Assembly: GCA_031254335.1 (NCBI GenBank)
Contig: JAIRUP010000003.1
Location: 5,257 to 69,256, forward strand
Direction: 5' to 3'
DNA length: 64,000 bases
Source of the DNA: Rickettsiales bacterium
GTDB taxonomy: Bacteria; Pseudomonadota; Alphaproteobacteria; Rs-D84
Part shown: in pieces, positions 12,013 to 51,076 of the stretch
Layout: every line of letters begins with the position of its first letter
How positions within the stretch are numbered: position 1 is the first letter of the stretch
The notes under the pieces: model-generated
The model's input: only the letters and a program-made list of their open reading frames with translations
What the model was told of the DNA's origin: nothing
Databases searched by the model: none
Position numbers and translations under genes: made by a program

Positions 12013-12990
12013 TTAGAGGCGGGGGGCGAGGGTCAGGACATCGTGCGTAATCGATACGCGGGTCGTATTCCCGTTCGGAGCCGTATAATCGTAATCCAAC
12101 GGCAACTGCCTGAGTTCGGGCGCGGTATTGAACAACTGCATGAACGGCGTCAGCATTTTCTTGAAATTAATTCCCGACGCTCCGCTGAAACAAGTCTGCT
12201 GCGCCGTCGTCATCGCCGCCGCCAGCTGGCCGCCGCCTGAAATCGTTTGTATCTCCTCGTCCGACATCACAAGGCATCTGTCCGTGAAGTGGAACACATT
12301 CTCGTCGTCGCTCATGACCGCGCGGACATCGAGCTGCGACGCGCCCATATCGCGCAACGCGTTCCCAAGCGAATTAGTGCAGCACTTCTTTCCCGCCGTC
12401 AAAAGGTTCCTATGCGCGCCTATCAGCACCCGGCCCGATTCGCTGCCGACGGGAAGGCTTCGGCGGTTCTTCAATTCCGTTATTATTATGCACATCTGCC
12501 GCTGGTCCACGCCATGCCCGCGGATTTGCGTCGTCGCGCGCACCGGCGGCTTTTTGTTCCATACCGCGCATTCCTTTTGCGTCCCATGCGGGCAACGGCC
12601 CCGTCCGACCGGCCCGCCGCAATGCAGTTTCCCATAGGATTCCAAGTCGCCGATTACGACGACCTTGTTCTCGAACAGATAATTGTTCTGGACATGGGTG
12701 AAAGGATTCGGAAATGTCGGCGCGGGATGGCCCGCCATCATTTCGGCCAGCGCGTCGTCGAACGCGCCGAGTCGCCCGGCGCGGAGCGGACCGGCCGCAA
12801 CGGGCTCCCATTCGCCGTCCTCGTCGTCTTCGATTTCTATATCAAGATTGATTACCAAGTCGCGCGGGACAGCCGGGCATTCCGCGGCTTCCTCTTCCGC
12901 CGGCTGCTCGGCGACGGGCTTTTCGGACGACGAGCAGCCCATGCCGAGGACGGCAATAATTCCTAGGAAAGAGACAAGTTTAAGGTTCAA
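12013..12990 (-). CDS. Hypothetical lipoprotein
   Basis: Signal peptide with a lipobox (LGMGCSS); an acidic stretch; Cys-rich; apparent TTG start; no confident family assignment. Confidence 0.5.
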   Translation of the reverse strand: MNLKLVSFLGIIAVLGMGCSSSEKPVAEQPAEEEAAECPAVPRDLVINLDIEIEDDEDGEWEPVAAGPLRAGRLGAFDDALAEMMAGHPAPTFPNPFTHVQNNYLFENKVVVIGDLESYGKLHCGGPVGRGRCPHGTQKECAVWNKKPPVRATTQIRGHGVDQRQMCIIITELKNRRSLPVGSESGRVLIGAHRNLLTAGKKCCTNSLGNALRDMGASQLDVRAVMSDDENVFHFTDRCLVMSDEEIQTISGGGQLAAAMTTAQQTCFSGASGINFKKMLTPFMQLFNTAPELRQLPLDYDYTAPNGNTTRVSITHDVLTLAPRL

Positions 12991-17508: not shown

Positions 17509-17536
17509 TTGACATCCGTTCGCGATTGGTTATAAT
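17509..17536 (+). promoter_or_regulatory. Near-consensus sigma70 promoter for fabZ
   Basis: TTGACA, a 16-nt spacer, then TATAAT, about 30 nt upstream of the fabZ ATG. Confidence 0.6.
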
Positions 17537-17566: not shown

Positions 17567-18016
17567 ATGTCCAAGAAATTTACAAAAAAAGACATAGAAA
17601 AAGTCATACCGCACCGCGGCGTCATGCTGCTTTTGGACGAGGCGACCGAAATCACAAAAACCTCGGGCAGGGCCGTGCATTTCGTCCGCGACGACGAGTT
17701 CTGGTGCGCCGGACACTTCCCGGGCAACCCCGTCATGCCGGGCGTGATTCAGGTCGAAGCACTTGCGCAGACGGCATGCCTTGTCGCGCTTAACGCCATG
17801 ATGGAGAAGTTCCCGAACCAGCGCGGCGCGGGGTATTTCACCAAAATCGAAAACTGCAAATTCACCAAGCTGGTTTGCCCGGGCGATGTTCTTGAACTGG
17901 AAGTGAACCTTATCATGAACAAGCTGACGCTTTACAAGTTCCACGGATGCGCGCGCGTCAATGGCGAAACGGTTTCGGAAGCTACTTTTTCCGCCATCAT
18001 GCAGTTCGGCGCATAG
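17567..18016 (+). CDS. fabZ: 3-hydroxyacyl-ACP dehydratase
   Basis: Hotdog-fold signature HFPGNPVMPGVIQVEALAQ. Confidence 0.9.
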   Translation: MSKKFTKKDIEKVIPHRGVMLLLDEATEITKTSGRAVHFVRDDEFWCAGHFPGNPVMPGVIQVEALAQTACLVALNAMMEKFPNQRGAGYFTKIENCKFTKLVCPGDVLELEVNLIMNKLTLYKFHGCARVNGETVSEATFSAIMQFGA

Positions 18017-18063
18017 CGCCTTTTCCCTTATAATTTCAGCCGCGAATATGCTATAATGCATTA

Positions 18064-20331
18064 ATGAATAAATTCGCTTTTGCGATTTTTGCCGCGCTTA
18101 CTCTTTCTGCGCCGGTTTTCGCCGCGTCGCCGCGCGTCGCGCCTTCAAGTCCTGAACGAGCTTCGCCGCGCGCCGAGACAAGGGCCGCCGCAAGCCGCGC
18201 CGCCGCGCCAATCACGAGTCCCGCCGCCGCCCGCGTCGCCGCGTCAAACCGCGCCCCCGCCGCCGCACGGCCCACAAACATTTCCCGCGCCGCAGTCGTT
18301 CAATCGCCCATCGCCGCGACGCACTCCGCCGCGACGGTCAGCCGCGCCGCCGCAATTTCCCGCAGCGCGACCGTTCGCGGACACGCCAATCCCGCCGCCG
18401 CGCGCGCCGCGACAAACCGCGGACGACAAATCGGAAAACTCGGCGCGCCGATTGACGGACGCCGCATCGGCCGAGCCGCCGAAGCCGCCGCCAGCGATTA
18501 CGGAGCCTGCAAGGATTCATACTCGGAATGCATGGACCAGTTCTGCGCCAACGCCAGCGACACTTACAAAAAGTGCATTTGTTCCGACAAATACCTGGAC
18601 CTGGCCGCGCAAAAGGAAGCCCTTGAATCCGCCGAGAACTCCTTGCAGGATTTCGGCGCGATGAACCTTAACATGATTCAGATGACCGAGAGAGAAGTCA
18701 ACGCCGTGCTTGAAGGGACCGAAGGCGAGCGAGCAGCCGAGGGAAAGACCGACGAATCCGCAAACGCCCAAAAACTCAACGACATCCTGGGCAGCCTTGG
18801 CGCGGGCAACGCCGGTAAAAAATCCAGCAAACTGGATTCGCTTGGCGGCACTACATTCTCGATGGATGTGGACGATATTTGGAGCGGCGGGTCCGCCACC
18901 GAAGGCGCCGTCGGCGAGAATGTTCGAGGCCGCGCGCTTTTCACCGCCGTCAACGGACAATGCCAGCAGATGACCAAGGAAACCTGCAAGGGAACCAACA
19001 TCGCCATGGTCGTTTCCGCTTATTCACTTACGGTGGACGCCGACTGCCAGAAGTTCCAAGCCGCAATCGACAAGATGCGCCAGGGACTTAAAGACAAAAT
19101 CCGCGAGGCCAACCTTGCCATGATGAACGAACGCCTGTCCGACTTTGAAAACAGGAATTCCCAAACGGCGGTGGAATGCCTTGGCAATGTCCTGAACGAT
19201 TTCCGCACCGACGCCGTCTGCGGCGCGAACTGGGGACGGTGCCTGGACTTCACCGGCCAATTCATCAACCAGCAGGGCGAGCCGATTTACACCGAAAAAT
19301 TCGCCGACGAACAGACCGGAATAACCAGCCTTCTGACCTTCGGCAGCGGAAACCAGACCCTTCTTGAAGCCAACGCCAGCAGCAAGTTCGTCGAATTCCT
19401 TCAAGGCAAGAAAAACTTCGCCGGAGATTCCCTTAGAAAATGCGAGCAGGAGGCCGATGTCGTCTGGAAGGAATCCCTTTCCCGCGCGCTTATGGAAATC
19501 ATTCAGGCGCAGGCGCGCAAAGTCGAGGAAGTCAAAGACAACTGCCTGACCAAACTTGTCGAATGCAACGAGAAGCAGTCGAGCGAGATGTCGAAAATCA
19601 CAGAGGGCGGAACCAAGGAAAAAACCGCGACCGAAAAAGGCGTGGAAGTCAAAACCCAGGCCGGAAGCCTTGCCGGGCTTGAATCATGCAAGGACATTCA
19701 GCGCGCCTGCGAGGCCATTTACGGCGGAGACGACGGACTTCTCAAAGGCCTGCTTCTCGACCGACAGAGCGCGCTTCAAGTCCGATACTGCGAGGACGAA
19801 AAGGGCGGACACTGGCACCAGCCAGACAGCTCCAAGGAAGGCGTTTGCATAATGAACCAAGTCGATTGCGAAAAAGCCGGCTTGTATTGGATTGACCGCG
19901 AAGGCGCGCTCAACGAATTCCAGCAGCGCGCGCGCGACACATTCCGCGCACAAAAGAAAGAGGTCGACGCCGACCCGGAATGGAGGGGACCGATTCCGCG
20001 CGCCTGCGTTTCGTTCGATTATTACTGCGGAAACTTCGAGGCCGCGACCGCCAAGGCGTCGACGCCTTCGGAGGGCGACATCAAGAACGGAAACATTTGC
20101 AACGCCCCCAACAGAGAGCAATGCGAAAAGTTCGGCTTCCCGTGGATTGGAAACAAATGCGTTCGAAACAAATACGACTGCGACGCAGGCGGCAAGGGAA
20201 TCGTTTGGTATAAGGGCCGATGCTGGCTTTCCGACGAGGCCAGCAAGAGAATCTGCGAGGACATCGGCGGGAAGCCCGACGGTATCAACAAGATTTGCAA
20301 CATAGCGATAACGCACAGGAAACCAAAGTAG
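18064..20331 (+). CDS. Large secreted Cys-rich protein, paralog 1 (755 aa)
   Basis: Signal peptide MNKFAFAIFAALTLSAPVFAAS; about 120 aa of Ala/Arg/Pro/Ser-rich low-complexity sequence; then a Cys-rich region with C-x6-C-MDxxCAN-x6-C-x-CS and a VCGxNxxRCxDxTGQF motif shared with the ORF at 27396. Confidence 0.8.
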   Translation: MNKFAFAIFAALTLSAPVFAASPRVAPSSPERASPRAETRAAASRAAAPITSPAAARVAASNRAPAAARPTNISRAAVVQSPIAATHSAATVSRAAAISRSATVRGHANPAAARAATNRGRQIGKLGAPIDGRRIGRAAEAAASDYGACKDSYSECMDQFCANASDTYKKCICSDKYLDLAAQKEALESAENSLQDFGAMNLNMIQMTEREVNAVLEGTEGERAAEGKTDESANAQKLNDILGSLGAGNAGKKSSKLDSLGGTTFSMDVDDIWSGGSATEGAVGENVRGRALFTAVNGQCQQMTKETCKGTNIAMVVSAYSLTVDADCQKFQAAIDKMRQGLKDKIREANLAMMNERLSDFENRNSQTAVECLGNVLNDFRTDAVCGANWGRCLDFTGQFINQQGEPIYTEKFADEQTGITSLLTFGSGNQTLLEANASSKFVEFLQGKKNFAGDSLRKCEQEADVVWKESLSRALMEIIQAQARKVEEVKDNCLTKLVECNEKQSSEMSKITEGGTKEKTATEKGVEVKTQAGSLAGLESCKDIQRACEAIYGGDDGLLKGLLLDRQSALQVRYCEDEKGGHWHQPDSSKEGVCIMNQVDCEKAGLYWIDREGALNEFQQRARDTFRAQKKEVDADPEWRGPIPRACVSFDYYCGNFEAATAKASTPSEGDIKNGNICNAPNREQCEKFGFPWIGNKCVRNKYDCDAGGKGIVWYKGRCWLSDEASKRICEDIGGKPDGINKICNIAITHRKPK

Positions 20332-20336
20332 AAGAC

Positions 20337-20612
20337 ATGGCGAAACAGGCAAGACATTTTCTCAGCGTATTCGGCGGCCTTATCGTCGCAATGCTTTGCG
20401 TCGGCGAATCCCGCGCGGCCGACGCCTTCCCGAAAATATACGCGAACAAAATAATCTACGATTTCGCCGCCCTTGTGAACTGCCACGAGCGCGAAGGCGT
20501 CAAGGATATAAAGAGCTGTCTGAACTTCGACGACTATATGTCGCAATCGCAGCAGAAATGCGCGGACTACGGATGGCCCACTTCCGGCCCCAACGCATGC
20601 TACGGATACTGA
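20337..20612 (+). CDS. Small secreted Cys-containing protein (91 aa) just downstream of paralog 1
   Basis: Signal peptide (FLSVFGGLIVAMLCVGESRA); 4 Cys; 5-nt intergenic gap to the preceding gene. Confidence 0.5.
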   Translation: MAKQARHFLSVFGGLIVAMLCVGESRAADAFPKIYANKIIYDFAALVNCHEREGVKDIKSCLNFDDYMSQSQQKCADYGWPTSGPNACYGY

Positions 20613-22503: not shown

Positions 22504-23847
22504 ATGGAGAGAATGGGGAAAATTTTTGGTTTTATGATGGGATTCGCTTTACTGGCGGATGTAATACCGGCTTACGCCGGAAAGACCACCCCGCCGCTTC
22601 GCGGCACCCCTCCACAGGAGGGGAACTTAGATAATTGTGCGGGCATGACCGAGCTTCCGGGGAAGATTACCGCGGCCGACGCCGTCGAACTCGGGCTTTG
22701 CCGCAACAACGGCACACGCGCCGCCTATGAATCCGTCCGCGCCGCAAAATTCCAGAAATACCAGGGCTATTCCAGCTATCTGCCGTCCGTCAACGCCGAG
22801 GGCCGCCGCCAATGGCGGAGCGACGAATATTTCGGCATACAAAACAATCCCACATCCACCGCGGGACTTACCGCAAGCTGGCTTTTGTTCGACTTCGGCA
22901 AGCGAGAGTCCGACCTTGGCGCCGCAATCGCCGCCTGGAACGCCGCCGGATTCGATTACGATTCGACCATTCAGACCTTCGTCTACGACATCATCAGCGC
23001 GTATTACACCGCCCTTATGGCCGCCGCGGACGAGAAGGTCAACCGCGACCTGCTTAAAGTCGCGGAGCATTCCTTCAATACCGCCGACAAAAAGTTCAAG
23101 GCCGGCGTCGTCCCGAAAGCCGACCGCCTGAAAGCCGAGACCCAGCTTGCCCAAAAGCGCGTCGACCTGCAAAAGAGCGAGGGCGCGACCAAAATCGCAA
23201 AAGGCCGCCTGCTGAACATGATGTCGTTCGAGGCCTCGCTTGACATCAAGCTCGACGACACCACGCCCGAACCCGAACTTGAAGCGCGCGACATCGAGGG
23301 CCTTATCGAGACCGCGAAGAACCTGCGCCCGGATTTGCGCGCCGCGCGCGAGAATGTGAACTCCGCCGATTACAAGATGTATGCTTCATATCTTAAAAAC
23401 CTGCCAAGCGTTTCCGCCAGCGCGAACCAGGATTACGATGTCGACAACGACCTGAAATCTTCCAGCATTTCAATCCGCGTGTCCATGCCGCTGTTCGCCG
23501 GATTCTCCAACTTCAACGCGACCCGCGCAGCGCGCGCGCAGCGCGACCAGTCCGAATTCCGCGAGCGCTCGCTTTCCCGTTCGGTAGAGCGCGATGTGTG
23601 GGACGCTTTCCAGAATTACAACACCGCTTTGGCCGTGCTTGAATCCACGCGCTCGCTGCTTTCCAGCGCGCGCGAGTCCGAGCGCGTCGTTTCGGGAATG
23701 TATAATGTCGGGCGAAGCACCATGCTTGACTGGCTTACCGCGCAATCCGATTTGGCGTCCGCCGAACGGCAGGCCGTTTATGCCAGATACGATTTAATCA
23801 TCAAGAAGCACGCGCTTGCGCTGGCGATTGGCGAGGTCGAGAGATGA
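22504..23847 (+). CDS. tolC: TolC-family outer membrane efflux channel
   Basis: Signal peptide; two TolC-like repeat halves (coiled-coil and beta regions); first gene of an efflux operon. The region 22590..22650 looks like an inserted repeat and shares a motif with 49425..49455. Confidence 0.75.
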   Translation: MERMGKIFGFMMGFALLADVIPAYAGKTTPPLRGTPPQEGNLDNCAGMTELPGKITAADAVELGLCRNNGTRAAYESVRAAKFQKYQGYSSYLPSVNAEGRRQWRSDEYFGIQNNPTSTAGLTASWLLFDFGKRESDLGAAIAAWNAAGFDYDSTIQTFVYDIISAYYTALMAAADEKVNRDLLKVAEHSFNTADKKFKAGVVPKADRLKAETQLAQKRVDLQKSEGATKIAKGRLLNMMSFEASLDIKLDDTTPEPELEARDIEGLIETAKNLRPDLRAARENVNSADYKMYASYLKNLPSVSASANQDYDVDNDLKSSSISIRVSMPLFAGFSNFNATRAARAQRDQSEFRERSLSRSVERDVWDAFQNYNTALAVLESTRSLLSSARESERVVSGMYNVGRSTMLDWLTAQSDLASAERQAVYARYDLIIKKHALALAIGEVER

Positions 23848-25148
23848 AGAAGAAAGTTAAAAAAGGAAATTTACAAAATGAGATGCCGACCTCCGTCGGC
23901 ATGACGGCGGGGGGAGGCTCTGCCGTTATGGAGAAGCCGAAGAAAAGGTTTCAGGTTAAGATGAAGTGGGTGGTGGGCGCGGCGTTGGTTTTGGCCGCGA
24001 TTGTCGGGTATTCCCTGTGGCCCGCGAAGCCCAAGGACGAGGCCGCCAAATGGGTGAGCGTTCCCGTGTCATTCGGCCGCATTGTTCAAGTCGTAACCGC
24101 AACCGGCGAAATCACCCCAGTCAACACCATCAATGTCGGTTCCCAAGTTTCCGGAATCATCGAGCGCATTTTCGTCGACTATAACGATGTCGTTCAGAAA
24201 GACCAGATTCTTCTTGAACTGGACAAGTCCGCCTTGCAGGCCTCGCTTGACGAGGCGGTCGCCCGCGTCAAGCGCGCACAGACGCAGCGCGACCTGGCCA
24301 AGGCCGATTACGACCGCGACCGCAAACTTTATTCCGACGGATTCATCGCACGCGCAGAACTCGACAAAAGCAAGGCCAACTGGGAATCGCTTGTGCAGGA
24401 CTATAACTCCGCCAAGTCCCAGCACGAGCGCGCCGAAGTCAATCTTGGATACGCCACAATCCGTTCGCCCGTGTCCGGCACCATCATCTCGCGCAAGGTC
24501 GACGAGGGCCAGACCGTTTCCGCCAGCTTGCAGACCCCGGACCTTTTCATAGTCGCCGAGGACCTGTCCAAGATGCAGATTGCGACCAGCATTTCCGAGG
24601 CCGACATCGGCGTCATAAAACAAGGCCAAAAAGTTTCCTTTACCGTCGACGCTTATCCCGCCCAATCGTTCGAGGGATTCGTCCGCCAGGTGCGCTTGTC
24701 CCCAAGCACCGCCCAGAATGTCGTCGTCTACACCGTCATAATCGATGTCGACAATTCCAGCCTTGAACTCATGCCCGGCATGACCGCCTTCGTAACCATC
24801 ACCGTTTCAGAAAAGGACGATGTTTGGAAGGCCGCGAATTCCGCGTTCCTTGTGCGCGACCTGGGCCGCATTTCCGACGACGACCGCGTGCAGACCGGCG
24901 AACTTACCGCCAAAGACACACTTGCCGTTTTGCGCGATGGAAAGGTCATTCTTATTCCTTATAAAAAAGGCATGGTAACCAACATCGAAACCGAAATCGT
25001 CGCCGACGGCCTGCAAAAGGGCGACAGGATTATTACGGGCAAGGTCGGGCAGGCCGCGGCGAACTCGAAAGGCGGCGGAATGGGCGGAGGCGGCGGCAGC
25101 GGAGGCGGAGGAGGAGGTGGTTTTGGCAGCAGGAGCGGGATGAGGTAG
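23844..25148 (+). CDS. macA: HlyD/MacA-family periplasmic adaptor (membrane fusion protein) with a Gly-rich C-terminal tail
   Basis: N-terminal TM; biotinyl/lipoyl-like and beta-barrel MFP regions; the C-terminus is GGGMGGGGGSGGGGGGGFGSRSGMR. A B-family repeat lies in-frame near the N-terminus (23871..23908), so the true start may be at 23929. Confidence 0.8.
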   Translation: MKKKVKKGNLQNEMPTSVGMTAGGGSAVMEKPKKRFQVKMKWVVGAALVLAAIVGYSLWPAKPKDEAAKWVSVPVSFGRIVQVVTATGEITPVNTINVGSQVSGIIERIFVDYNDVVQKDQILLELDKSALQASLDEAVARVKRAQTQRDLAKADYDRDRKLYSDGFIARAELDKSKANWESLVQDYNSAKSQHERAEVNLGYATIRSPVSGTIISRKVDEGQTVSASLQTPDLFIVAEDLSKMQIATSISEADIGVIKQGQKVSFTVDAYPAQSFEGFVRQVRLSPSTAQNVVVYTVIIDVDNSSLELMPGMTAFVTITVSEKDDVWKAANSAFLVRDLGRISDDDRVQTGELTAKDTLAVLRDGKVILIPYKKGMVTNIETEIVADGLQKGDRIITGKVGQAAANSKGGGMGGGGGSGGGGGGGFGSRSGMR

Positions 25149-25189
25149 GATGGGACAAAAATTTTTGAGTTGTTGAACGGGAATAAGAA

Positions 25190-25918
25190 ATGCAGAAGAA
25201 GACAGAGCCGGATGTCATTTTCATGGACAAGGTCAACAAGGAATTCCCCTTGTATGGCGGTGGCGTGCAGAAAGTCCTTTTTGACATATCCTTCCGCGTC
25301 AGGCCCGGCGAATTCGTCGCCGTCATGGGGCCGTCCGGCTCCGGCAAATCGACCCTTATGAACATCATCGGAGCTTTGGACACCGCAACCAGCGGAATTT
25401 ATAAACTATACGGCCTTCCCATAGAAGACATGACGCCCGACGAGCTGGCCGTCGCCCGCAACGAATACATCGGCTTCGTTTTCCAGAGCTTCAATCTTCT
25501 GACCAAACGCAATGTCCTTGACAATGTCATGCTTCCCATCATGTATCGCGGCTTGGATTACGACGAGCGCGCGAAGCTGGCGCGCGAGATGTTGAATATG
25601 GTCGGCCTTGAAAAGTTCGAACGCTATTTGCCCAACCAACTTTCCGGCGGTATGCGCCAGAGAGTCGCCATCGCGCGCGCCCTTGCAGGCTCGCCCAAAC
25701 TAATCCTTGCAGACGAGCCCACCGGCGCGCTTGATTCCAAGATGGGAAACGAGATTCTAAAATTCTTCCAGAAACTCAACAAGGAGATGGGCATTACAAT
25801 CGTCATGATTACCCATGAATTCGAGATTGCGCAGTATGCTTCGCGCTTGATTCACATCAAGGACGGCGTGATTTCATACGACGGTAAGATGCCGAAATCG
25901 GATAGGAATATAAAGTAA
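25190..25918 (+). CDS. macB: ABC transporter ATP-binding protein, MacB/LolD type
   Basis: Walker A GPSGSGKST; ABC signature LSGGMRQRVAIARAL; Walker B ILADEPTGALD. Confidence 0.9.
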   Translation: MQKKTEPDVIFMDKVNKEFPLYGGGVQKVLFDISFRVRPGEFVAVMGPSGSGKSTLMNIIGALDTATSGIYKLYGLPIEDMTPDELAVARNEYIGFVFQSFNLLTKRNVLDNVMLPIMYRGLDYDERAKLAREMLNMVGLEKFERYLPNQLSGGMRQRVAIARALAGSPKLILADEPTGALDSKMGNEILKFFQKLNKEMGITIVMITHEFEIAQYASRLIHIKDGVISYDGKMPKSDRNIK

Positions 25919-25929
25919 AGGAAGAAGGA

Positions 25930-27147
25930 ATGACGATAGGGGACATATTCAAGGAATCGTGGATTTCCATCGCGGGAAACAAGACCCGAACATTCCTTAC
26001 CGTTTTGGGAATCATAATCGGCGTCATGGCCGTCGTCATCATGGTCGCCGTCGGCGAGACCGTGCAGAAACAAATCGACGACCAATTCTCGGCCCTTGGG
26101 TCCAACACCATCGTAATCCGCCCCGCCCAAGTTCAGACCGCCGGAGTGCGCCAGGGAAACCGCATGACCCTTACCATTCAAGACGCCGAAGTTTTGCGCC
26201 GGCTGCCCGAGATAACCGCCCTTACGCCGCAGCAATCTTCCAGCGCGCAGATTGTTTTCGGAAACAAAAACTGGCCAGCCCAGATGATGGGCGTTTGGCC
26301 AGACTATCTTGCCGTCAACGGCGCGGAGGTCGAGCAGGGCGCGTTCTTCGACATGTCCGCCGTCCGCAATTCATCCGCCGTCGCCGTTTTGGGCCCCAAG
26401 ATTGTGCGCGAGCTTGATATGGGCGATTACCCCATCGGACAAGTCATTCGAATTTCCAATGTTCCCTTCGTCGTAATCGGCGTCTTGAAATCCCGCGGCG
26501 AAAGTTTCGGCGGGAACACCGACGAGTCCGTCATCATTCCTTTCAGCACGCTTAAAAAACGCTTCGCGGGCCGGTATTTTCAAGATTCCGTTCAGGCCAT
26601 TGCTTTGAAAACAATTTCAGGCTCGGACAACGATGTCGTTATCGAGCAGATTACCGCGATTCTCCGCGACCGCCACAAGCTGAAAGACGACCAGCAGGAC
26701 GATTTCCAGATTATGAACATGAAGCAGGTCATGGACACCCTTAACACCGTAACAGGCTTTATGAAGATGCTGTTAATCGCCATCGCGTCGGTGTCCCTTT
26801 TGGTCGGCTCCATCGGAATCATGAACATGATGCTGGTGTCCGTCATGGAGCGCACGCGCGAAATCGGCATCCGAAAAGCCGTCGGAGCAAAAGAACGGCA
26901 CATCATGATTCAATTCCTTGCAGAGTCCATCATGATTTCCAGCATGGGAAGTTTTATAGGTTTGCTGTCGGGGGTTGTAATCACGCAGGGCGTCGGGCGG
27001 TTCGTTCTTGGGTTCCCCGTTCCCGTGAGTTTATGGTCGGTTATCATTTCCGTCGTCGTAGCTTTGGTAGTCGGTATTGCGTCCGGCGTGTTTCCAGCGA
27101 TTAAGGCGACGAAGCTGAATCCGATTGATTCGTTAAGGTATGAATAA
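25930..27147 (+). CDS. ABC transporter permease, FtsX/MacB family
   Basis: N-terminal TM, a large periplasmic domain, and a C-terminal FtsX-like 3-TM bundle (ERTREIGIRKAVGA). Confidence 0.85.
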   Translation: MTIGDIFKESWISIAGNKTRTFLTVLGIIIGVMAVVIMVAVGETVQKQIDDQFSALGSNTIVIRPAQVQTAGVRQGNRMTLTIQDAEVLRRLPEITALTPQQSSSAQIVFGNKNWPAQMMGVWPDYLAVNGAEVEQGAFFDMSAVRNSSAVAVLGPKIVRELDMGDYPIGQVIRISNVPFVVIGVLKSRGESFGGNTDESVIIPFSTLKKRFAGRYFQDSVQAIALKTISGSDNDVVIEQITAILRDRHKLKDDQQDDFQIMNMKQVMDTLNTVTGFMKMLLIAIASVSLLVGSIGIMNMMLVSVMERTREIGIRKAVGAKERHIMIQFLAESIMISSMGSFIGLLSGVVITQGVGRFVLGFPVPVSLWSVIISVVVALVVGIASGVFPAIKATKLNPIDSLRYE

Positions 27148-27395: not shown

Positions 27396-29786
27396 ATGAA
27401 GGTATTAAATTCTAGATTTTGGCTGGTTTCCGCGTGTGCGCTGGCGTTGGCTTTGCCCGCCGCGTCCGAACCCATCATGTTCTATGCAGAGGAAGAGGAA
27501 ATATACGATGAGATACCCGGTCAAGCCGGGTATGACAATGGTGCGGCGGGAATGACAAATGAAAATGAGGCGAGGCCGTCGGTGGTTGTGCCGGGCGGAG
27601 CGGGCGCGCAACGCGCCGGGGCCGTCATCCCAAGCGTCAAGCAAAACCAGGGCGCGCGCGGAAGCCAAGTCGTCAGCCGCCAGCCCAATTTCGCCCCCAC
27701 CGGCCCGCAGGGCCGCAATGTTCAGAACAGAAATATTCAAGGACGCAGCGCCGTGCCGATGGCCGTTCAACAACGAGGCACAGTTCAACAGCGCAGCGCG
27801 GCTCCCGCTCGCGGAACCGTTCAGGCACCGCGCGCGACTGCCCCTCGCGCCGTCGGGACCCGCGGTTCCAGCCAGCAGGGACGCGGAGCCGTTCAATCGG
27901 GAACGCAGCTTGTAGCCGGGACTTCGCCCACCGCCGCCGCAATATCGAACGAGCCCGCCGCGCAGGCCAATCAGCCCGTCGCCGCGCGAGCCGCCCTTAC
28001 AGGCTCGCCCATAACATCTTCCCGCACTTCGGTCGCCCGCAATGCCAACGCTTCCGCCGCACAACAGCTTATCGACGAACACACCGCGCAGAGGCAAGAG
28101 CTTGAAAGCCTGAAAACCGCCCTGGACATCGCAAACGAAAGGTCCGAAATACAAATGCAAATCGACGATTCATGCCTTGCGCAATTCTACGGCTGCATGG
28201 ACGATATTTGCGCCAATGTCAACGACACTCTCGGCCGCTGCGCTTGTTCCCCCAACGCGGAAAATTACAAAGAGATGGACGACCGCCTTAAAAAGGTGAA
28301 TATCGAGCTTCAAGATGTCGTCAGAAACATTCAATACCTTGGCCTGACCACCGACGAAGTCAACAGCCTTTTCATGGAGACCGAGGCCGAACGGGCCTTG
28401 AACCAGATGTCCCCCGACATAGGCGGCGGACAAAGCACCATGCTGCGCGATTTGCTGATGGGCGTCGAGCTTCCCGACATCGCGGACATTGGAACACAGA
28501 AAACCAAAAGCCCGTTCCAAAGCAGCTTTATAGACATGGCCGATTTCGGAGATTTCGGCGACTTGTTCGGAAACACAACCAAGAAGACCTTCAACGACAT
28601 CGCGAACATGTCCGGCAAGGACCTGTATAACGCCGCCAAGCAAAAGTGCGAATTCGTCCTTAAAGAATGCCAGAAGAAGAAAGTCGATGTCGAGATGATT
28701 CAAGCCAAATACGATGTCGAAATCGGAAAGCAATGCGTTTATATCCGCGACGACCTGGACGAAAGAATCGAAACCGCCACAAACATGCTTCGCCAGGCGC
28801 GCACCATGCTTGAACGCGCCCGCTTCCAAGTCGCCCAAAACAAAAACCTGTTCGACCTTAAAGAATGCGTGCAGGAAATGGACAAGTGCATGACCGACGA
28901 TTTCGTTTGCGGTAAAAACTATGTCCGCTGCATCGACGGCACAGGACAATTCGTTTCAAGCGACGGAAAGGATGTCGTCCCCGGCGCCGACCTTATATAT
29001 ATGCAGCACACATTGTGGGGCGGAACTTCCGGTAGTGCCGATTACGCCGTGCTTGCCGGGTTGGCTACAAAAAAAGTCAATGGAAAAGAAGAAACTATTT
29101 GGCCATTCAATCCCAGCCGGTTGACAGACGGCGGCTTTGCAGTGAACCCATCAGCGGAAAAAGTCGTCCAGATATTGGCCAGTAAAATCGGGTATATAGG
29201 CAAGGATGGATACGCGGGCGCGGGATTCTGCGCCGCAGTCATGAACCAATGCCAAAGATACACGCGCAGCGGCAACGAAGCCACTACATTCGACCCGAAC
29301 AATGAAGTTGTGAAAAATTATCTGCTTCAAGCACTTCCCAAAATCCGCAGCGCCCAGGACAAGTTCATAACCGAATTCCAAGTTCAATGCGTGTCTGACC
29401 TTAAATCGTGCTATCAGAGACAGATTCAATCAATGTCCGGCGGATATTACGGAAGCGTGTCCAATATAAACTTAGCGAACTTCTCCACAATGCGCGCGGC
29501 ATGCAGCAGTATCGGTTTCTCATGCGCCTTGGCGGTGAATTCAAGCGAATTTAATTCTTCCAGTGGCTCTGGCGCGTGCCGAAGGACTCCAACCGATGCC
29601 ATCACTACGACAACGGATATAGAAAAATGTTTGAACTCGGTGTCGACGATTGCTTTATCCGGATTGATAACTTGCCCGACCGGTGCGTCGATAGAGCTTG
29701 ATAGTAGTAAAAATCCTGTAACAAACAATAATATTTGTAAATGCCAGACCGGTAACATAGACTTGACAACGAATAGTTGTAGATAA
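27396..29786 (+). CDS. Large secreted Cys-rich protein, paralog 2 (796 aa)
   Basis: Signal peptide MKVLNSRFWLVSACALALALPAAS; an acidic stretch, then Gln/Arg/Ala-rich degenerate repeats (QGRNVQNRNIQGRSA...); the motifs CxxxxxxCMDDICANVNDTLGRCACS and FVCGKNYVRCIDGTGQF align to paralog 1. Confidence 0.8.
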   Translation: MKVLNSRFWLVSACALALALPAASEPIMFYAEEEEIYDEIPGQAGYDNGAAGMTNENEARPSVVVPGGAGAQRAGAVIPSVKQNQGARGSQVVSRQPNFAPTGPQGRNVQNRNIQGRSAVPMAVQQRGTVQQRSAAPARGTVQAPRATAPRAVGTRGSSQQGRGAVQSGTQLVAGTSPTAAAISNEPAAQANQPVAARAALTGSPITSSRTSVARNANASAAQQLIDEHTAQRQELESLKTALDIANERSEIQMQIDDSCLAQFYGCMDDICANVNDTLGRCACSPNAENYKEMDDRLKKVNIELQDVVRNIQYLGLTTDEVNSLFMETEAERALNQMSPDIGGGQSTMLRDLLMGVELPDIADIGTQKTKSPFQSSFIDMADFGDFGDLFGNTTKKTFNDIANMSGKDLYNAAKQKCEFVLKECQKKKVDVEMIQAKYDVEIGKQCVYIRDDLDERIETATNMLRQARTMLERARFQVAQNKNLFDLKECVQEMDKCMTDDFVCGKNYVRCIDGTGQFVSSDGKDVVPGADLIYMQHTLWGGTSGSADYAVLAGLATKKVNGKEETIWPFNPSRLTDGGFAVNPSAEKVVQILASKIGYIGKDGYAGAGFCAAVMNQCQRYTRSGNEATTFDPNNEVVKNYLLQALPKIRSAQDKFITEFQVQCVSDLKSCYQRQIQSMSGGYYGSVSNINLANFSTMRAACSSIGFSCALAVNSSEFNSSSGSGACRRTPTDAITTTTDIEKCLNSVSTIALSGLITCPTGASIELDSSKNPVTNNNICKCQTGNIDLTTNSCR

Positions 29787-41868: not shown

Positions 41869-43887
41869 TTGAATATGGGGGGGGAATATGGTAAAATTAG
41901 GGAAAGAGAGAATTTTAGGAGAGGGCCTATTTTTAGGAAGTTCAGCAATTTATGCGGATTCATACAATGGACCCCGGCCTTCGCCGGGGTGACGCTAGTT
42001 GTTATGTTGTCCAGTGCAATGGCGGCGCCGATTGCGGGGCCGGGTCCGGCAATCGCGGGCGGCGGCGGAAACCTTACTTCCCTTAAAGGTTCCGGCATAG
42101 TGAACGCCAACGCCTACAACAATCAAGCCATGCCTCAACGCACCGCCCATGTCGAGATGGCCGAGGCTGCCGCGGGCGCGGAAATAAACTATCGCAACTG
42201 CGAATCCATGCTGAAACGCTGCGTCGTTCCCAAGTGTTCCGCAGGCTGCACAGACAATGCCATGACGACCAGCATTATCAAGGGATGTTTATCCGCCATG
42301 TCACCCGGTTGCGAGAAATTCGACGAATTGCCGTCCGCGCTTGCCGCTGAAATAGTTTCCATGGGCGTAGCCGCCCAACAAAAAGCCGCGTCCGAGGCCG
42401 CGAGCGCGGCCGCCGCGCAGGCGCAAGCCCAGGCAAGCGCGGACACCGCCGCCATGCAGCAACAGATGGCGCAGATGCAACAGCAGATGGCCGAACAGCA
42501 GGCCCAGGCCGCCGCGGCGCAACAGAAAATGATGGAAGACATGATGGCCGCGCAACAGGCGCAGGCTCAGCAGGCCGCCGCCATGCCCGCCGCCGCGCCG
42601 GTTATGGCCGAAGTTTTGGCGCGCGACCAGGCGTCCGGCCAAATCATGTCCGAAATCGACCGCATGAACGGCGCGCTGGCTTCCCTTAAAAAAATCATGG
42701 AGACGACATTCGATTACGCCGGCTGCGATTACCGCGGCGAGAACTGCCAGCAGGTGCGCCGAGTCGCCGCCTTCCGCGAGAAGGCCAACAAGTTCTTCCA
42801 GCCCTTCGACGAAGTTATCGACCGCATTTACGATGTAATCAGCATGGGCCAGGCACTTGGCGCGGATGTCAACAATGTTTATATGCTGTTGGAGAGTTCT
42901 TGCGAAAGATGGGGGCTTTACACCAATACAAACTTCAAGCCGAATACCACAAATGTTCCGAAACAAGGCGACCTTATAAGGATTCTGAATTCCGGCGAAG
43001 AAGTTTTGAATGAATTTTCGCAGGGGCAGCAGAGGTCCGACGGCCTTATGGTCGCCTGCGCTTCGAAGAGCGCGACAAGCAATGTGGGAATGATTGCCAG
43101 GCGCCGGGCGAACGCAACCGCAATCGATACCGAGCCTTTGAGGCAGGCGCTGGCGGCCATGGATAGAAGAGAGATGAACGCAAGCAAAAGCATGGTATGG
43201 GTGCATCCGTGTTGCGGAAGCAGTACCGTAAAGACCGTTTGCAAAGAGAAGTGGGGCGACACGGACAAAAACAACCCGGGCGACGGGTCTTGCAAAGAAG
43301 TAAATCCCGAATTCACCATTTGCCCGGTGCATGCATTGAACGGACCCATGTGTTCCTCTGGGGTGCAAACGCTTTCGCTGACGGCGCCGGACGCCGAGCT
43401 TCTTGCGCGCCGCGCGAGCAATATAACCCGCGAGATGTTCCAGCAGTTCAACAGGCTGGACATCATCGCAAAGCAAATCAGAACCATTGTTCAGCAGGCC
43501 GTTCTGAACCACCAGAACCAGCAGGCGGCAGAAGCCGCCAACCCGGGCGCGAATGCCATAGATTCGGCGCTTTGTATGAGTGCGGGTGGAACTTTGGAAG
43601 TTCTTAAATGCCTTGGCAACGAGGTCGCGCAGCTTATTTCAGAAGTTCAATCAGCGAGCACCGTGTCGAATTTCAGAAAACGCTGCGATAACCTGTATGC
43701 CAGGGTTAAGAATGAAACCAGCCTTTATGCGAAGAATCAAAATAAAAATATTAAACAATGCGGAACTGATAAAGCTAGTATGCAAGAAAGCTTATATTCG
43801 TTTAGAAATGCCTTAACCGAGGCTAGTAATAGCACTGACCTTAAAAAAGATGCCACACAGTTCGTGATTCAAGCCAGTCCGCAGTAG
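41869..43887 (+). CDS. Large secreted Cys-rich protein, divergent paralog 3
   Basis: C-x6-C-x4-C module (CESMLKRCVVPKCSAGC) like paralogs 1 and 2; a long Gln/Ala-rich low-complexity tract (AQAQASADTAAMQQQMAQMQQQMAEQQAQAAAAQQ); a Cys-rich remainder. The N-terminus includes an in-frame B-family repeat (41955..41990) encoding a hydrophobic segment; the true start is uncertain. Confidence 0.65.
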   Translation: MNMGGEYGKIRERENFRRGPIFRKFSNLCGFIQWTPAFAGVTLVVMLSSAMAAPIAGPGPAIAGGGGNLTSLKGSGIVNANAYNNQAMPQRTAHVEMAEAAAGAEINYRNCESMLKRCVVPKCSAGCTDNAMTTSIIKGCLSAMSPGCEKFDELPSALAAEIVSMGVAAQQKAASEAASAAAAQAQAQASADTAAMQQQMAQMQQQMAEQQAQAAAAQQKMMEDMMAAQQAQAQQAAAMPAAAPVMAEVLARDQASGQIMSEIDRMNGALASLKKIMETTFDYAGCDYRGENCQQVRRVAAFREKANKFFQPFDEVIDRIYDVISMGQALGADVNNVYMLLESSCERWGLYTNTNFKPNTTNVPKQGDLIRILNSGEEVLNEFSQGQQRSDGLMVACASKSATSNVGMIARRRANATAIDTEPLRQALAAMDRREMNASKSMVWVHPCCGSSTVKTVCKEKWGDTDKNNPGDGSCKEVNPEFTICPVHALNGPMCSSGVQTLSLTAPDAELLARRASNITREMFQQFNRLDIIAKQIRTIVQQAVLNHQNQQAAEAANPGANAIDSALCMSAGGTLEVLKCLGNEVAQLISEVQSASTVSNFRKRCDNLYARVKNETSLYAKNQNKNIKQCGTDKASMQESLYSFRNALTEASNSTDLKKDATQFVIQASPQ

Positions 43888-43943: not shown

Positions 43944-44516
43944 TTGGTTAATCTCAAAAATATCATTTATGAAATCAGGGGGCAGCAGGTCATGTTGGAC
44001 AGCGACCTCGCGCGGATTTATGGGATTGATACAAAGGTATTAAATCAGGCCGTGAAACGGAATATTCACAAGTTCCCGCCTGAATTCAGGTTTCAGCTGA
44101 CGCGGGCCGAATATGAAAACTTGAGGTGCCAAATTGGCACCTCAAGATGGGAATGCCCTGAAAATCAGCCAAACTTAAGGTCACAAATTGTGACCTCAAG
44201 TTATGGAGGGCGCAGATACCTGCCGTTCGTCTTCACCGAGCACGGGGTTGTCATGCTTGCTTCCGTCCTTAATAGCAAGACTGCCGTGCAGGTAAATATC
44301 GCCGTCGTCAAAGCATTCGTCGCAATGCGCCACTATGTCGAGCAGCCCGTCAAAAAGAAGCTGGACGACCTTGAAAAGATTCTTATGCTTCACATCGACG
44401 ACACCAACGGACACTTGTCCGAACACGCCGCCAAGATAAACGAAATCATAACCGCTTTGGGCGCGATGGTCGAAAAGCCCAAGCCCAAAAGGAGGATAGG
44501 GTTCAATGTTAAATAA
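43944..44516 (+). CDS. ORF6N-domain protein (KilA-N-like, mobile-element or phage associated)
   Basis: IRGQQVMLDSDLARIYGIDTKVLNQAVKRNIHKFPPEFRFQLT...SYGGRRYLPFVFTEHGVVMLASVLNS; TTG start with an aagagga RBS; contains an 18-codon palindromic duplication; AT-rich. Confidence 0.8.
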   Translation: MVNLKNIIYEIRGQQVMLDSDLARIYGIDTKVLNQAVKRNIHKFPPEFRFQLTRAEYENLRCQIGTSRWECPENQPNLRSQIVTSSYGGRRYLPFVFTEHGVVMLASVLNSKTAVQVNIAVVKAFVAMRHYVEQPVKKKLDDLEKILMLHIDDTNGHLSEHAAKINEIITALGAMVEKPKPKRRIGFNVK

Positions 44517-44563: not shown

Positions 44564-45799
44564 ATGAGGAAGATTATCCCGGCTCTTTTTCTTTTTGCGC
44601 TTGTTCCCGCCGCCGGGTTCGCCAGGCCTTTCAATATGGACGGTATGTTCATGATTGGCACGGATGTGGGGTTAGGACATTCCGCCTTAGGGAGCGGTAT
44701 GGCGGCCGCGGCAGCGCGCGACGACACTATTAAGACAATAGACAACGCCCAAATAGAAATGGTCTTAAAAAACGCCAATGAACTGGACTTTGGGCCCGTT
44801 GAATCCCAATTGCAAGATGCTTTCGCAAAGTTGTGGGAAATTCTGCCGGAAGAGGACAAGACCTTGTGCTGGGCCGCCGACGGAGCCAAGGATACCATAA
44901 AAACCGCCTTGGACAATATAACCGCCAAAATAACCGGCGCGAGATTTCTTGCGCTGAATGTAGATGAAAAATACAAGATGGAATACTTCAAGCTGAGGGT
45001 TTCGCAAATGAAACCATGCGTCGCAAATGCGATAACAATGGCCGCAGTTCAAGCACAAGGCAGGGCGGCCGAAGAAATACTCGATATAGCCAATAATCTT
45101 TCATTCGACGAACTGAAAGAAAAGCTGAGAGTTATTCCGCGCGAAGAGAACAAGACCGTTTGCTTCATACCGTTCGGAACAGACAGGAACGATATGCAGT
45201 CCGCAATAAATGATTTGCAATATTCAATCGGCCGTTCAAGCATGTTTGCCGCAACGGACGCATTCAATAAACAGGTCAAAACCCTACATGACGCAGAGAA
45301 TTGCGGATGGTGCGGCGAGGATGGCAAGATTTGCTTCAAGGACAAAAACGACAATATCATAAACACGCATGATATGAACGAGGCGGACCGCGATTGGTTC
45401 TTGGAATCGCACAGTAGAGGATTCATAAAAGAAGAGGATTTGGAAAGATATGCGAAGCTGGCCGGAGTTGAATGGGATTCGGATGTCCTTTCCCCCGCGC
45501 CAGCCGTTGAATTGTCATATTACACCGGGGAAATGGACTCAATGTTGGAATCTCACGGCTCCGAGTGCGTGCCGATGGAATCATACTATGATTGGGATGA
45601 AAGGGTCCGCGAAAATATAGATAGGGACCAGATGGATGCCTTTCATGATTATGCGAAGACGATTATCGACAGGTTCTGCTCAGAGGAAAGGCCGGTGGTG
45701 GCGGAAGGAGAGGGCGTTGAAGAATTGGATAATGAACAGAATAGGATTCCCGCCTCCGCGGGAATGACAGATTTGGCGGCGGCGGAAGGAGAAATGTGA
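44564..45799 (+). CDS. Hypothetical secreted protein (411 aa) with an acidic C-terminus
   Basis: Signal peptide MRKIIPALFLFALVPAAGFA; several Cys; a B-family repeat is encoded in-frame near the C-terminus (RIPASAGMTD). Confidence 0.55.
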   Translation: MRKIIPALFLFALVPAAGFARPFNMDGMFMIGTDVGLGHSALGSGMAAAAARDDTIKTIDNAQIEMVLKNANELDFGPVESQLQDAFAKLWEILPEEDKTLCWAADGAKDTIKTALDNITAKITGARFLALNVDEKYKMEYFKLRVSQMKPCVANAITMAAVQAQGRAAEEILDIANNLSFDELKEKLRVIPREENKTVCFIPFGTDRNDMQSAINDLQYSIGRSSMFAATDAFNKQVKTLHDAENCGWCGEDGKICFKDKNDNIINTHDMNEADRDWFLESHSRGFIKEEDLERYAKLAGVEWDSDVLSPAPAVELSYYTGEMDSMLESHGSECVPMESYYDWDERVRENIDRDQMDAFHDYAKTIIDRFCSEERPVVAEGEGVEELDNEQNRIPASAGMTDLAAAEGEM

Positions 45800-50916: not shown

Positions 50917-51076
50917 ATAAACCGCGCTAAACGCACCGCCTGGCTTGCGTTTCTCGTTTTTTGCCACCGGCATGTATGTTCAATACACTAGCTCGGCGTC
51001 AAAAAACTTCGAATACGCGCCATTCGGCGCATTTATCACGATTTCTTACAAACAAAATTCGCACGGGTCGTTTTGG

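Follow-up and report, generated by a model that had tools for sequence, protein, structure and literature searches.

Results

Three Cys-Rich Genes in the Window

The window analyzed here is a stretch of 64,000 nucleotides from a Rickettsiales bacterium assembly (GCA_031254335.1; contig JAIRUP010000003.1, positions 5,257 to 69,256 of the forward strand). It encodes three large Cys-rich proteins, which an initial annotation had grouped into one paralogous family of secreted proteins with swapped low-complexity modules. The list of open reading frames (ORFs) and their translations confirmed the three genes on the + strand at 18064..20331 (ORF1), 27396..29786 (ORF2) and 41869..43887 (ORF3). Their products are identical to LBH81_00955 (ORF1; P0001, 100% match), LBH81_01005 (ORF2) and LBH81_01085 (ORF3), all annotated as hypothetical proteins from "MAG: Rickettsiales bacterium" and encoded on a contig of 84,968 bp. 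As described below, ORF1 and ORF2 represent one superfamily of exported proteins, and ORF3 a different family.

ORF1 encodes a 755-aa protein of what we call the p1-like subfamily. Its signal-peptide-like N-terminus (18064..18123; MNKFAFAIFAALTLSAPVFA/AS, the slash marking the end of the signal peptide; hydrophobic maximum 2.42) is followed by a Cys-free, cationic low-complexity tract (18124..18483; A 34%, R 14%, S 9%, P 7%; net charge +13), made up of degenerate units of 5–9 residues with one Arg each. The predicted helical, conserved core (18484..19728; aa 141–555) carries 16 Cys residues that are invariant in the superfamily, together with two signature motifs, CKDSYSECMDQFCANASDTYKKCICS (18508–18585) and AVCGANWGRCLDFTGQF (19213–19263). 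The variable Cys-rich C-terminal region (19729..20328) contains small β-hairpin modules of the form C-x3-G-x2-W-x4-C, such as CEKFGFPWIGNKC.

The 796-aa product of ORF2, a member of the p2-like subfamily with orthologues P0198–P0217, shows the same arrangement. In its N-terminal region (27396..28145), a signal peptide ending in ...LPAAS is followed directly past the cleavage site by an acidic/aromatic motif, EPIMFYAEEEEIYDE, which is conserved within the p2-like subfamily, and then by an A/Q/G/R-rich tract of degenerate Arg-containing units. The conserved core (28146..29315; aa 251–640) has the same invariant Cys residues and both signature motifs, CLAQFYGCMDDICANVNDTLGRCACS and FVCGKNYVRCIDGTGQF, and a variable Cys-rich C-terminal region follows (29316..29783).

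Homology of ORF1 and ORF2

BLASTP aligned ORF1 with ORF2 over 415 aa (E = 1e-25, 26% identity). With the SEG low-complexity filter the match was retained over 273 aa lying wholly outside the biased tract (E = 1.5e-20). We derived a family profile from 76 homologues of ORF1 in the database and searched it, unfiltered, against the 352 ORFs of 80 aa or more in the window; it matched ORF1 at 5e-172 and ORF2 at 5e-67. Hidden Markov models (HMMs) of two further subfamilies matched ORF1 and ORF2 only, not ORF3. The BLASTP and profile matches uphold the alignment of ORF1 and ORF2 that the initial annotation had considered convincing. The motifs quoted there also proved to be real and to serve as signatures of the family, C-x6-C-M-D-x2-C...C-x-C-S and (A/V)CG-x-(N/D)(W/Y)-x-x-C-(L/I)-D-x-TG being invariant or nearly so. 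In the relaxed forms C-x6-C-[ML]-[DN]-x2-C...C-x-C-S and CG-x-(D/N)(Y/W)-x2-C they are present, along with the 16 core Cys residues, in ORF1, ORF2 and all 97 members checked. It is well supported by these sequence comparisons that ORF1 and ORF2 are true paralogs, anciently diverged, of one superfamily.

ORF3 had been described as a more divergent third paralog, a view that found no backing. It showed no BLASTP match to ORF1 or ORF2, was absent from the family-HMM results even at E < 10 with all filters off, and, when an alignment of 58 ORF3 homologues was compared with that of the ORF1/ORF2 family using hhalign, a probability of 1.2% was obtained. When the hhalign comparison was confined to the Cys module of about 75 residues, three Cys residues fell in register at E = 0.39. 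Neither the divergent subfamilies B and C nor a 1,039-aa protein of an Enterousia contig (L088) served as a bridge between ORF3 and the superfamily. ORF3 does keep the C-x6-C-x4-C spacing, as had been noted, and this is the sole signature feature that it has. The literal pattern is found in all three ORFs and in one other of the 352 window ORFs, a junk antisense ORF. C-x6-C pairs occur seven times in ORF1 (1.2 expected) and eight times in ORF2 (1.0 expected; P < 5e-4), a 6–8-fold enrichment, whereas the two in ORF3 do not significantly exceed the 0.66 expected (P = 0.14). A single C-x6-C-x4-C coincidence in ORF3, with its 20 Cys residues, is not compelling. The layout said to be common to the three proteins is shared as far as the hydrophobic N-terminus goes; the biased tract of ORF3, however, lies after the first Cys module, in contrast to those of ORF1 and ORF2, which precede the first Cys. 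Since no method recovered ORF3, the supposed family of three is better described as two paralogs and a member of a second family.

The three ORFs could nevertheless all derive from one very old family of C-x6-C(-x4-C) helix modules, with ORF3 having diverged beyond the reach of sequence methods. In line with such kinship, the mature products of all three ORFs have C-x6-C-x4-C as their first Cys cluster, a triad that the window's other genuine ORFs lack, and the module-level hhalign places the Cys residues in register. The distant 1,039-aa member has two such triads (e.g., NCANTIKSCAMRVCGGGSGAAC, as compared with NCESMLKRCVVPKCSAGC in ORF3), both families are predicted to be helical, and their genes are neighbors in the LBB23 genome and lie near each other on an Enterousia contig. 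However, neither BLASTP, nor any of four HMMs, nor hhalign provided statistical support; C-x6-C is not enriched in ORF3, its domain order differs, and we estimate that a lone shared spacing in a protein with 20 Cys residues would arise by chance at roughly a few percent. We therefore consider remote common descent of all three unlikely.

ORF3 and Its Own Family

The long ORF3 frame (41869–43887) spans 672 aa from a TTG codon, and the deposited call comprises 627 aa from ATG 42004, which removes a signal-peptide-like segment. Translation from ATG 41875, which has an AAGG resembling a ribosome-binding site upstream, gives an N-terminus of about 48 aa with a hydrophobic segment (...FAGVTLVVMLSSAMA/AP) ending in ...SSAMA/AP. 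Because the 42004 start cuts this segment off, and homologues have canonical signal peptides before PIAGPGP, the gene probably starts at ATG 41875 (41875..43887, + strand). The signal peptide is followed by a G/N-rich segment, the C-x6-C-x4-C module (42199–42312), a Q/A/M-rich, coiled-coil-like tract (approximately 42328–42720) and a Cys-containing helical region.

ORF3 has a family of its own, with 252 matches, many of them from gut alphaproteobacterial metagenome-assembled genomes (MAGs; P0077–P0196). Its members share the order of a canonical signal peptide, PIAGPGPAI-GGGGNLT, FGNC-x6-C-x4-C, a conserved Q/A/M-rich tract and a Cys-containing region. The Q/A/M-rich tract is predicted to be helical and contains invariant residues (M196, Q199 and M200). 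Matches of the family to TFIIA in Pfam were ascribed to the Q-rich composition and discarded.

In LBB23, a p1-like gene (P0004) lies 1.5 kb upstream of a p3-like gene, i.e., one of the ORF3 type (P0079), and the genes downstream of the latter (ORF6N, an uncharacterized protein, murG, ftsW and mraY) follow the order seen 3' of ORF3 in the window. On the Enterousia contig, the 1,039-aa superfamily member, which is rich in C-x6-C and C-x6-C-x4-C, lies 2 kb upstream of a p3-like gene. This positional link hints at a functional connection of the two families or at a very remote common ancestry. They are alike in occurring in the same bacteria, in being exported, Cys-rich and helical by prediction, in having C-x6-C-x4-C as the first Cys cluster, and in matching nothing in Pfam. 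They differ in that no homology is detectable between them, and in that the ORF3 family has a conserved Q/A/M-rich helix after the Cys module, as compared with the Arg-periodic, disordered N-terminal tract of the superfamily. Judging from the sequences, ORF3 belongs to another family of exported Cys-rich proteins, one found in the same bacteria as the superfamily and sometimes next to its genes.

Two genes following ORF3 were noted in passing. The first (43944–44516, + strand) encodes an ORF6N-domain protein of the phage antirepressor/KilAC type (Pfam E = 4.5e-34), an odd gene for a reduced genome, which lies between ORF3 and the next secreted ORF and occupies the same position in LBB23 (L089, 9714–10244). 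The second (44564–45799, + strand), 3' of both ORF3 and the ORF6N gene, encodes a 411-aa protein that has several Cys residues, starts with an evident signal peptide (MRKIIPALFLFALVPAAGFA) and matches nothing in Pfam. At its position LBB23 (L089) has a 534-aa protein, also without a Pfam match, and BLAST detected no similarity between the two.

Signal Peptide and Cationic Tract

Signal peptides were called by a Kyte–Doolittle hydrophobicity heuristic. In agreement with the initial annotation, a signal or hydrophobic N-terminus was found in all three ORFs, in ORF3 only when it is read from ATG 41875. Among the 97 superfamily members, 94 have a signal-peptide-like N-terminus, the other three being truncated gene calls, and the hydrophobicity scan detected no further membrane-spanning-like segment in any of the 97. 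The signal peptide commonly ends in ...A-D-A/A-V-R-D in p1-like members and in ...LPAFA/E in p2-like members. No conserved lipobox was found, the ORF1 signal peptide being devoid of Cys. The possibility that ORF2 is a lipoprotein (VSAC, Cys14) was rejected because Cys14 is not conserved in the orthologues; the hydrophobic segment also runs past this residue. Outer-membrane proteins of Brucella are attached to peptidoglycan through an N-terminal Ala-Asp. An attachment motif of this kind was likewise rejected for the superfamily, since "ADA" fits positions −3/−1 of a signal-peptidase site, leaving AVRD as the mature end.

In each of the 97 members examined, the tract that separates the cleavage site from the first conserved Cys (median residue 149) is devoid of Cys; its pooled composition is T 18%, A 17%, S 12% and R 11%, and its median net charge is +13. 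Arg residues within the tract are spaced nonrandomly. A spacing of five residues was observed 197 times against 93 expected, spacings of 5–9 occur at roughly double the expected frequency, and Arg next to Arg is five times rarer than expected (32 vs. 161), the local consensus being (T/V)(T/S)(A/S)R(A/T/S)(A/T). The tract diverges quickly. Between ORF1 and its closest orthologue (65% identical overall), identity is 31% in the tract, as compared with 71% in the core and 50% in the C-terminal region. The "Ala/Arg/Pro" tract of ORF1 and the "Gln/Arg" tract of ORF2 are thus best read as variations on a single fast-diverging region occupying the same position in every member. "Swapped low-complexity modules" is a wrong description of it, because the tract shares composition and Arg spacing throughout the 97 members and diverges fast in place. 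ORF3 does not conform to this pattern; its segment before the first Cys is G/N-rich, and its biased tract comes after the Cys module. The DNA of the ORF1 tract contains only a weak repeat (36 nt × 2.3 at 18184–18268) and no perfect repeats, and phase variation by tandem repeats was rejected on these grounds.

Conserved Core and Variable C-Terminus

The core is about 410 aa long, and its 16 Cys residues, invariant across both subfamilies, are mostly arranged as C-x6-C pairs. A model obtained with AlphaFold2 (AF2) from a 64-sequence alignment had a mean pLDDT of 78.5, with values above 85 over most of the core, and a pTM of 0.48. The modeled core is almost wholly helical, with helices of up to 54 residues, and the C-x6-C pairs C9/C16 and C354/C361 each lie inside one helix. 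The C-terminus of ORF1 appears in the model as short β-hairpins.

In relatives of 1.4–2.3 kilo-amino acids (kaa), the C-terminus consists of tandem "AC-x2-GG-x-W-x4-C-x-C" modules with Pro/Glu/Gln linkers, or of F-x-GW-type repeats, and in some members the repeat modules of the C-terminal region cover about 1,500 aa. The "C..GG.W....C.C" module is 11-fold more frequent than in shuffled sequences and lies in the C-terminal halves. These Cys-rich and F-x-GW-type repeats resemble, by analogy, the repeats of cell-surface proteins. The giant members P0316, P0319 and P0328 (2.1–2.3 kaa, up to 121 Cys residues) contain tandem "ACTNAGGTWNGTTCEC"-type modules joined by PDQPEP linkers; their repeat regions matched nothing in Pfam, NCBIfam or the PDB sequences, and may represent an undescribed Cys-rich repeat module.

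Distribution, Copy Number and Variability

One genome per GTDB species was scanned for the ORF1-type motif Yx[TEA]CMDQFC. At least 594 stretches encode a relative, a count that leaves out ORF2-type genes because of the motif used, and 80 loci were kept. Nearly all of the kept loci are from gut MAGs (rumen, sheep, goat, yak, human and termite), many of them assigned to Candidatus Enterousia. A HMMER scan of 1.84 billion representatives of 50%-identity clusters yielded 1,043 clusters at E ≤ 1e-3, 591 of them at E ≤ 1e-30, with both ORF1 and ORF2 among the matches. Every named source of the superfamily is an uncultured MAG of gut Alphaproteobacteria or "Rickettsiales". The host-associated origin proposed in the initial annotation is borne out by these gut relatives and by the identical proteins labeled "MAG: Rickettsiales bacterium". 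Enterousia belongs to the order Rs-D84, and reduced genomes of 0.67–1.6 Mb have been reported in a comparison that also covered two other lineages (PMC12306168). According to the same study, Rs-D84 bacteria have no respiratory chain, are missing biosynthetic pathways, and are probably obligate symbionts or parasites with a partner-dependent lifestyle (PMC12306168). The link between the window's MAG and Rs-D84 is drawn from the families that they have in common, and from synteny with the closest relative (L001/L005) only.

ORF1-type and ORF2-type subfamilies both occur in termite-derived as well as ruminant-derived MAGs, and from this distribution the duplication that separated them is judged to be old. 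LBB23 has one p1-like and two p2-like genes. In 25 of the 80 loci, all from Enterousia, three superfamily genes lie side by side, representing subfamilies A, B and C with scores of about 850, 270 and 105 bits, respectively, against the profile (A3) that defines the superfamily. Eight assemblies with two loci each have a further copy at the second one, which gives at least four copies in seven of them and at least three in the other. Overall, a genome carries at least 2–4 copies. For ORF1 and ORF2, then, the description as multi-copy, Cys-rich proteins with a Sec signal and an unrecognized domain was borne out by the copies found, by the N-termini, and by the lack of matches in Pfam, NCBIfam and PDB sequences. 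In the Enterousia trios (L003, 4836–12880, and 24 other loci, e.g., L008, L021 and L072), two genes share a strand and one is divergent. In L003, infA lies inside the trio and a PMP-like autotransporter (1,083 aa) is encoded nearby.

Eight near-identical variants from different samples were compared column by column. Variable positions made up 26 of 120 columns in the N-terminal tract and 5 of 480 in the core, and two C-terminal patches were variable at 15 of 40 and 17 of 40 columns (32/80), with indels. As read from these alignments, the concentration of changes in the tract and C-terminal patches suits regions that are exposed.

Genomic Neighborhood

The gene order of the window runs from rpoC through UvrD, a TPR protein, lpxD, purC and fabZ to ORF1, a TolC-MacA-MacB operon and ORF2. 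After ORF2 come YidC, LspA, RuvC, RecF, rhamnose-pathway genes, MltG, FabF and acpP (only acpP being read from the sequence), and then ORF3, the ORF6N protein, murG, ftsW, mraY and BamA. The window is ordinary chromosome and not an island. An ORF1-type gene beside lpxD–fabZ is found only in the window and in the closest relative (L001); elsewhere, infA, mraZ or tRNA synthetase genes are the neighbors.

Six nucleotides past the ORF1 stop codon, a small ORF begins (20337..20612, + strand; 91 aa) whose product has a signal peptide, four Cys residues in the mature part and no Pfam match. A homologue with 43% identity lies 3' of the ORF1 orthologue in L001, L002 and L005, i.e., in the closest relatives only, and an 86-aa gene occupies the equivalent position 3' of P0002. 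It is possible that the 91-aa protein is a partner of ORF1. On the 5' side, fabZ and ORF1 are separated by 47 nt with only a weak terminator-like hairpin (18008–18020), and the two genes may therefore be co-transcribed. A perfect sigma-70 consensus (TTGACA, 16 nt, TATAAT; 17509–17536, + strand) lies just upstream of fabZ.

Directly upstream of ORF2 is a complete operon (22504–27147, + strand) encoding TolC, a MacA-like protein with a Gly-rich tail (GGGMGGGGGSGGGGGGGFGSRSGMR), a MacB ATPase and an FtsX-type permease. Further genes of the window were noted apart from the three ORFs. A lipoprotein-like ORF (12013–12990, − strand) has an LGMGC lipobox, 11 Cys residues and no Pfam match. Its homologues are next to lpxD in L001 and L005, and another (27% identity, E = 1e-20) is found close to the ORF3-like gene of the Enterousia contig L088. 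A 765-aa protein (50945–53242, + strand) fuses a GT2 glycosyltransferase with an FkbM-type methyltransferase. A 390-aa protein with a large insertion (56431–57603, + strand) matches the F420-0:gamma-glutamyl ligase family, which would be unexpected in a fermentative, reduced genome.

Discussion

Proposed Function of the ORF1/ORF2 Superfamily

We tentatively favor the hypothesis that the superfamily provides a disulfide-stapled stalk or adhesin of the envelope or cell surface in a partner-dependent bacterium, while judging it somewhat more apt to be wrong than right. We infer that, after Sec export, the core would fold into an elongated helical bundle in which i/i+7 Cys pairs on adjacent helices are stapled by disulfides, as in the twin CX9C of CHCH domains, and that the protein would serve as an extracytoplasmic stalk associated with the envelope or surface. 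Its cationic tract could tether it electrostatically to polyanions such as lipopolysaccharide (LPS), peptidoglycan or the surface of a partner cell, and the variable C-terminal modules could carry binding specificity. Paralogs of one genome, which in Enterousia stand three in a row, may assemble together. In bacteria with about 0.9 Mb of DNA that probably depend on a partner, the result might be a coat or attachment structure.

Several observations weigh against this hypothesis, and some of them bear on other explanations. Beyond close relatives, the neighborhoods of the superfamily genes are unlike one another, and a conserved operon or linkage to a secretion system was considered and rejected. 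MacAB-TolC, which adjoins ORF2, is not a constant neighbor either; a TolC homologue adjoins one of three other p2-like loci (L086), and the other two have neither component. The position of ORF2 directly downstream of this exporter would otherwise suit an effector or toxin released to act on a partner, a host cell or competing bacteria, an explanation with which the export, the Cys content, the multiple copies, the variable C-termini and the probable partner dependence of the organism are also in accord. However, the searches revealed neither domains nor folds of toxins, enzymes or pore formers in these proteins, no immunity-like neighbor is conserved, and a helical core conserved in all paralogs points more to a structural scaffold than to diversified effectors. 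An effector role thus seems improbable to us.

As regards location, which is the weakest point of the stalk or adhesin hypothesis, nothing found in the sequences places the proteins beyond the periplasm, as they show no β-barrel, no conserved lipobox, no sorting signal and no linked secretion system. A signal peptide alone delivers a protein to the periplasm. The surface antigens or secreted effectors envisaged in the initial annotation are a plausible conjecture. An alternative is that the proteins remain periplasmic, or sit on the inner side of the outer membrane, and stiffen the envelope through intra- and intermolecular disulfides, in the manner of chlamydial OmcA/OmcB, replacing tethers lost in genome reduction, with the tract binding peptidoglycan. 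This alternative would account for a Sec signal unaccompanied by any feature for outer-membrane translocation or anchoring, and for the strong conservation of the core and its invariant Cys residues; envelope genes are also present in the same window (lpxD, fabZ, MacAB-TolC, YidC, LspA, MltG, murG/ftsW/mraY and BamA). It sits less well with the restriction of variation to terminal patches among near-identical variants, and with the huge C-terminal arrays of Cys-rich or F-x-GW-type repeats with Pro/Glu linkers, both of which are more typical of exposed binding proteins. The chlamydial families also gave no Pfam match. On balance, we regard a purely periplasmic structural role as rather unlikely.

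The formation of disulfides is itself a point of doubt for the stalk or adhesin hypothesis. No Dsb family match was found among the ORFs of the 64-kb window scanned against Pfam, and, given the reported lack of respiratory chains (PMC12306168), one may ask in what way a DsbB-type oxidase is recycled. In hosts that are strict fermenters, a quinone-dependent DsbB-type pathway may be missing, and the invariant Cys residues might instead bind Zn or Fe-S-like clusters, for example in a redox or metal-storage protein of an anaerobic envelope. Clusters such as C-x6-C-x4-C-x9-C-x-C would be compatible with metal binding. Yet an even number (16) of invariant Cys residues, laid out as i/i+7 helix pairs over about 400 residues, is more in keeping with disulfide staples between helices than with compact metal sites. 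Apart from one Asp in the CMD motif, there is no invariant His, Asp or Glu to accompany them, and no metal-binding family was matched. We hold metal ligation to be very unlikely. A last reservation about the stalk model is that, with a pTM of 0.48, the arrangement of its domains is uncertain.

Biological Significance

Rs-D84/Ca. Enterousia are widespread in the guts of ruminants, humans, birds and termites, with genomes often below 1 Mb, of which the superfamily takes up about 1% (at least four genes of about 800 codons). Dependence on a partner is supposed for these bacteria, and the mode of partner interaction is obscure (PMC12306168). The superfamily is among the most obvious candidates for an envelope or attachment function, because it is conserved across the sampled lineages, exported, and varies only at its ends between near-identical relatives. 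A bolder and distinctly unlikely extension is that the superfamily, perhaps joined by the ORF3 family and by small partners like the 91-aa protein, forms a lineage-defining, multi-paralog attachment or coat structure. If this were true, it would point to how ultra-small Rs-D84 bacteria attach to a partner cell in the gut and perhaps draw nutrients from it, to a new "twin CX6C" disulfide-stapled helical fold, and to a surface route new for diderm bacteria. As the evidence is purely computational, the immediate value of the work lies in a well-defined family and a set of hypotheses rather than in a mechanism. The superfamily offers a clean target for structure determination, with a possible new disulfide-stapled helical fold, as well as for Pfam curation, and a lineage marker for metagenomes.

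Comparison with Known Protein Families

The three ORFs, sets of 52 and 58 family members, and the longest relatives gave nothing significant in Pfam or NCBIfam; the profile and long members matched none of the PDB sequences, and Foldseek against the PDB returned no specific fold match. The domain left unrecognized in the initial annotation therefore has no match to a characterized family, and the signal-peptide-like N-termini expected for it are present. No title or abstract among the papers retrieved on Enterousia and Rs-D84 concerns these proteins, and the genome comparison cited above makes no mention of them (PMC12306168). As far as library searches set it apart from known families, the superfamily is undescribed, and both family and fold are without a known relative.

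Among the nearest analogies, all of them conceptual, are the twin CX9C/CHCH proteins (e.g., Mia40 substrates and Cox17). In these small proteins of the mitochondrial intermembrane space, two helices with Cys pairs form a hairpin stapled by two disulfides. The superfamily likewise has Cys pairs of fixed spacing on one helix, C-x6-C (i, i+7) lying within single predicted helices. Its spacing, however, is x6 and not x9, and its members are of about 800 aa, bacterial, Sec-exported and without a Pfam match to CHCH, so that the resemblance is one of principle only. The chlamydial proteins OmcA and OmcB are exported and Cys-rich, belong to host-dependent diderms with reduced genomes, and are thought to rigidify the envelope through disulfides. 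The superfamily shares with them export, Cys-richness and a reduced-genome diderm host; no similarity in sequence or profile exists, and it differs in being predicted helical, with a cationic disordered tract and a variable C-terminus.

Among eukaryotic microbes that live on hosts, the multi-copy, Cys-rich surface proteins MSG of Pneumocystis (PF02349) and VSP of Giardia are comparable in having several paralogs per genome, a high Cys content, and a conserved scaffold combined with variable regions. The match of ORF2 to Pfam MSG was below threshold (E = 0.4, 11.3 bits against a cut-off of 22) and did not recur among 52 members. In contrast to the tens to hundreds of copies of the MSG/VSP type, there are 2–5 copies of the superfamily, and the genes show neither perfect repeats nor an architecture of expression sites or switching. 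A relation to type V secretion was not supported, as Pfam Autotransporter gave no match and the AF2 model contains helices and short hairpins only, with no β-barrel. A conceptual analogy may also be drawn with helical, disulfide-clasped adhesins such as the ectodomains of Helicobacter BabA/SabA and Plasmodium RH5/RBP. As a kind, the superfamily is familiar: its members are exported, rich in Cys and variable at their ends, and they occur in several copies within a single lineage.

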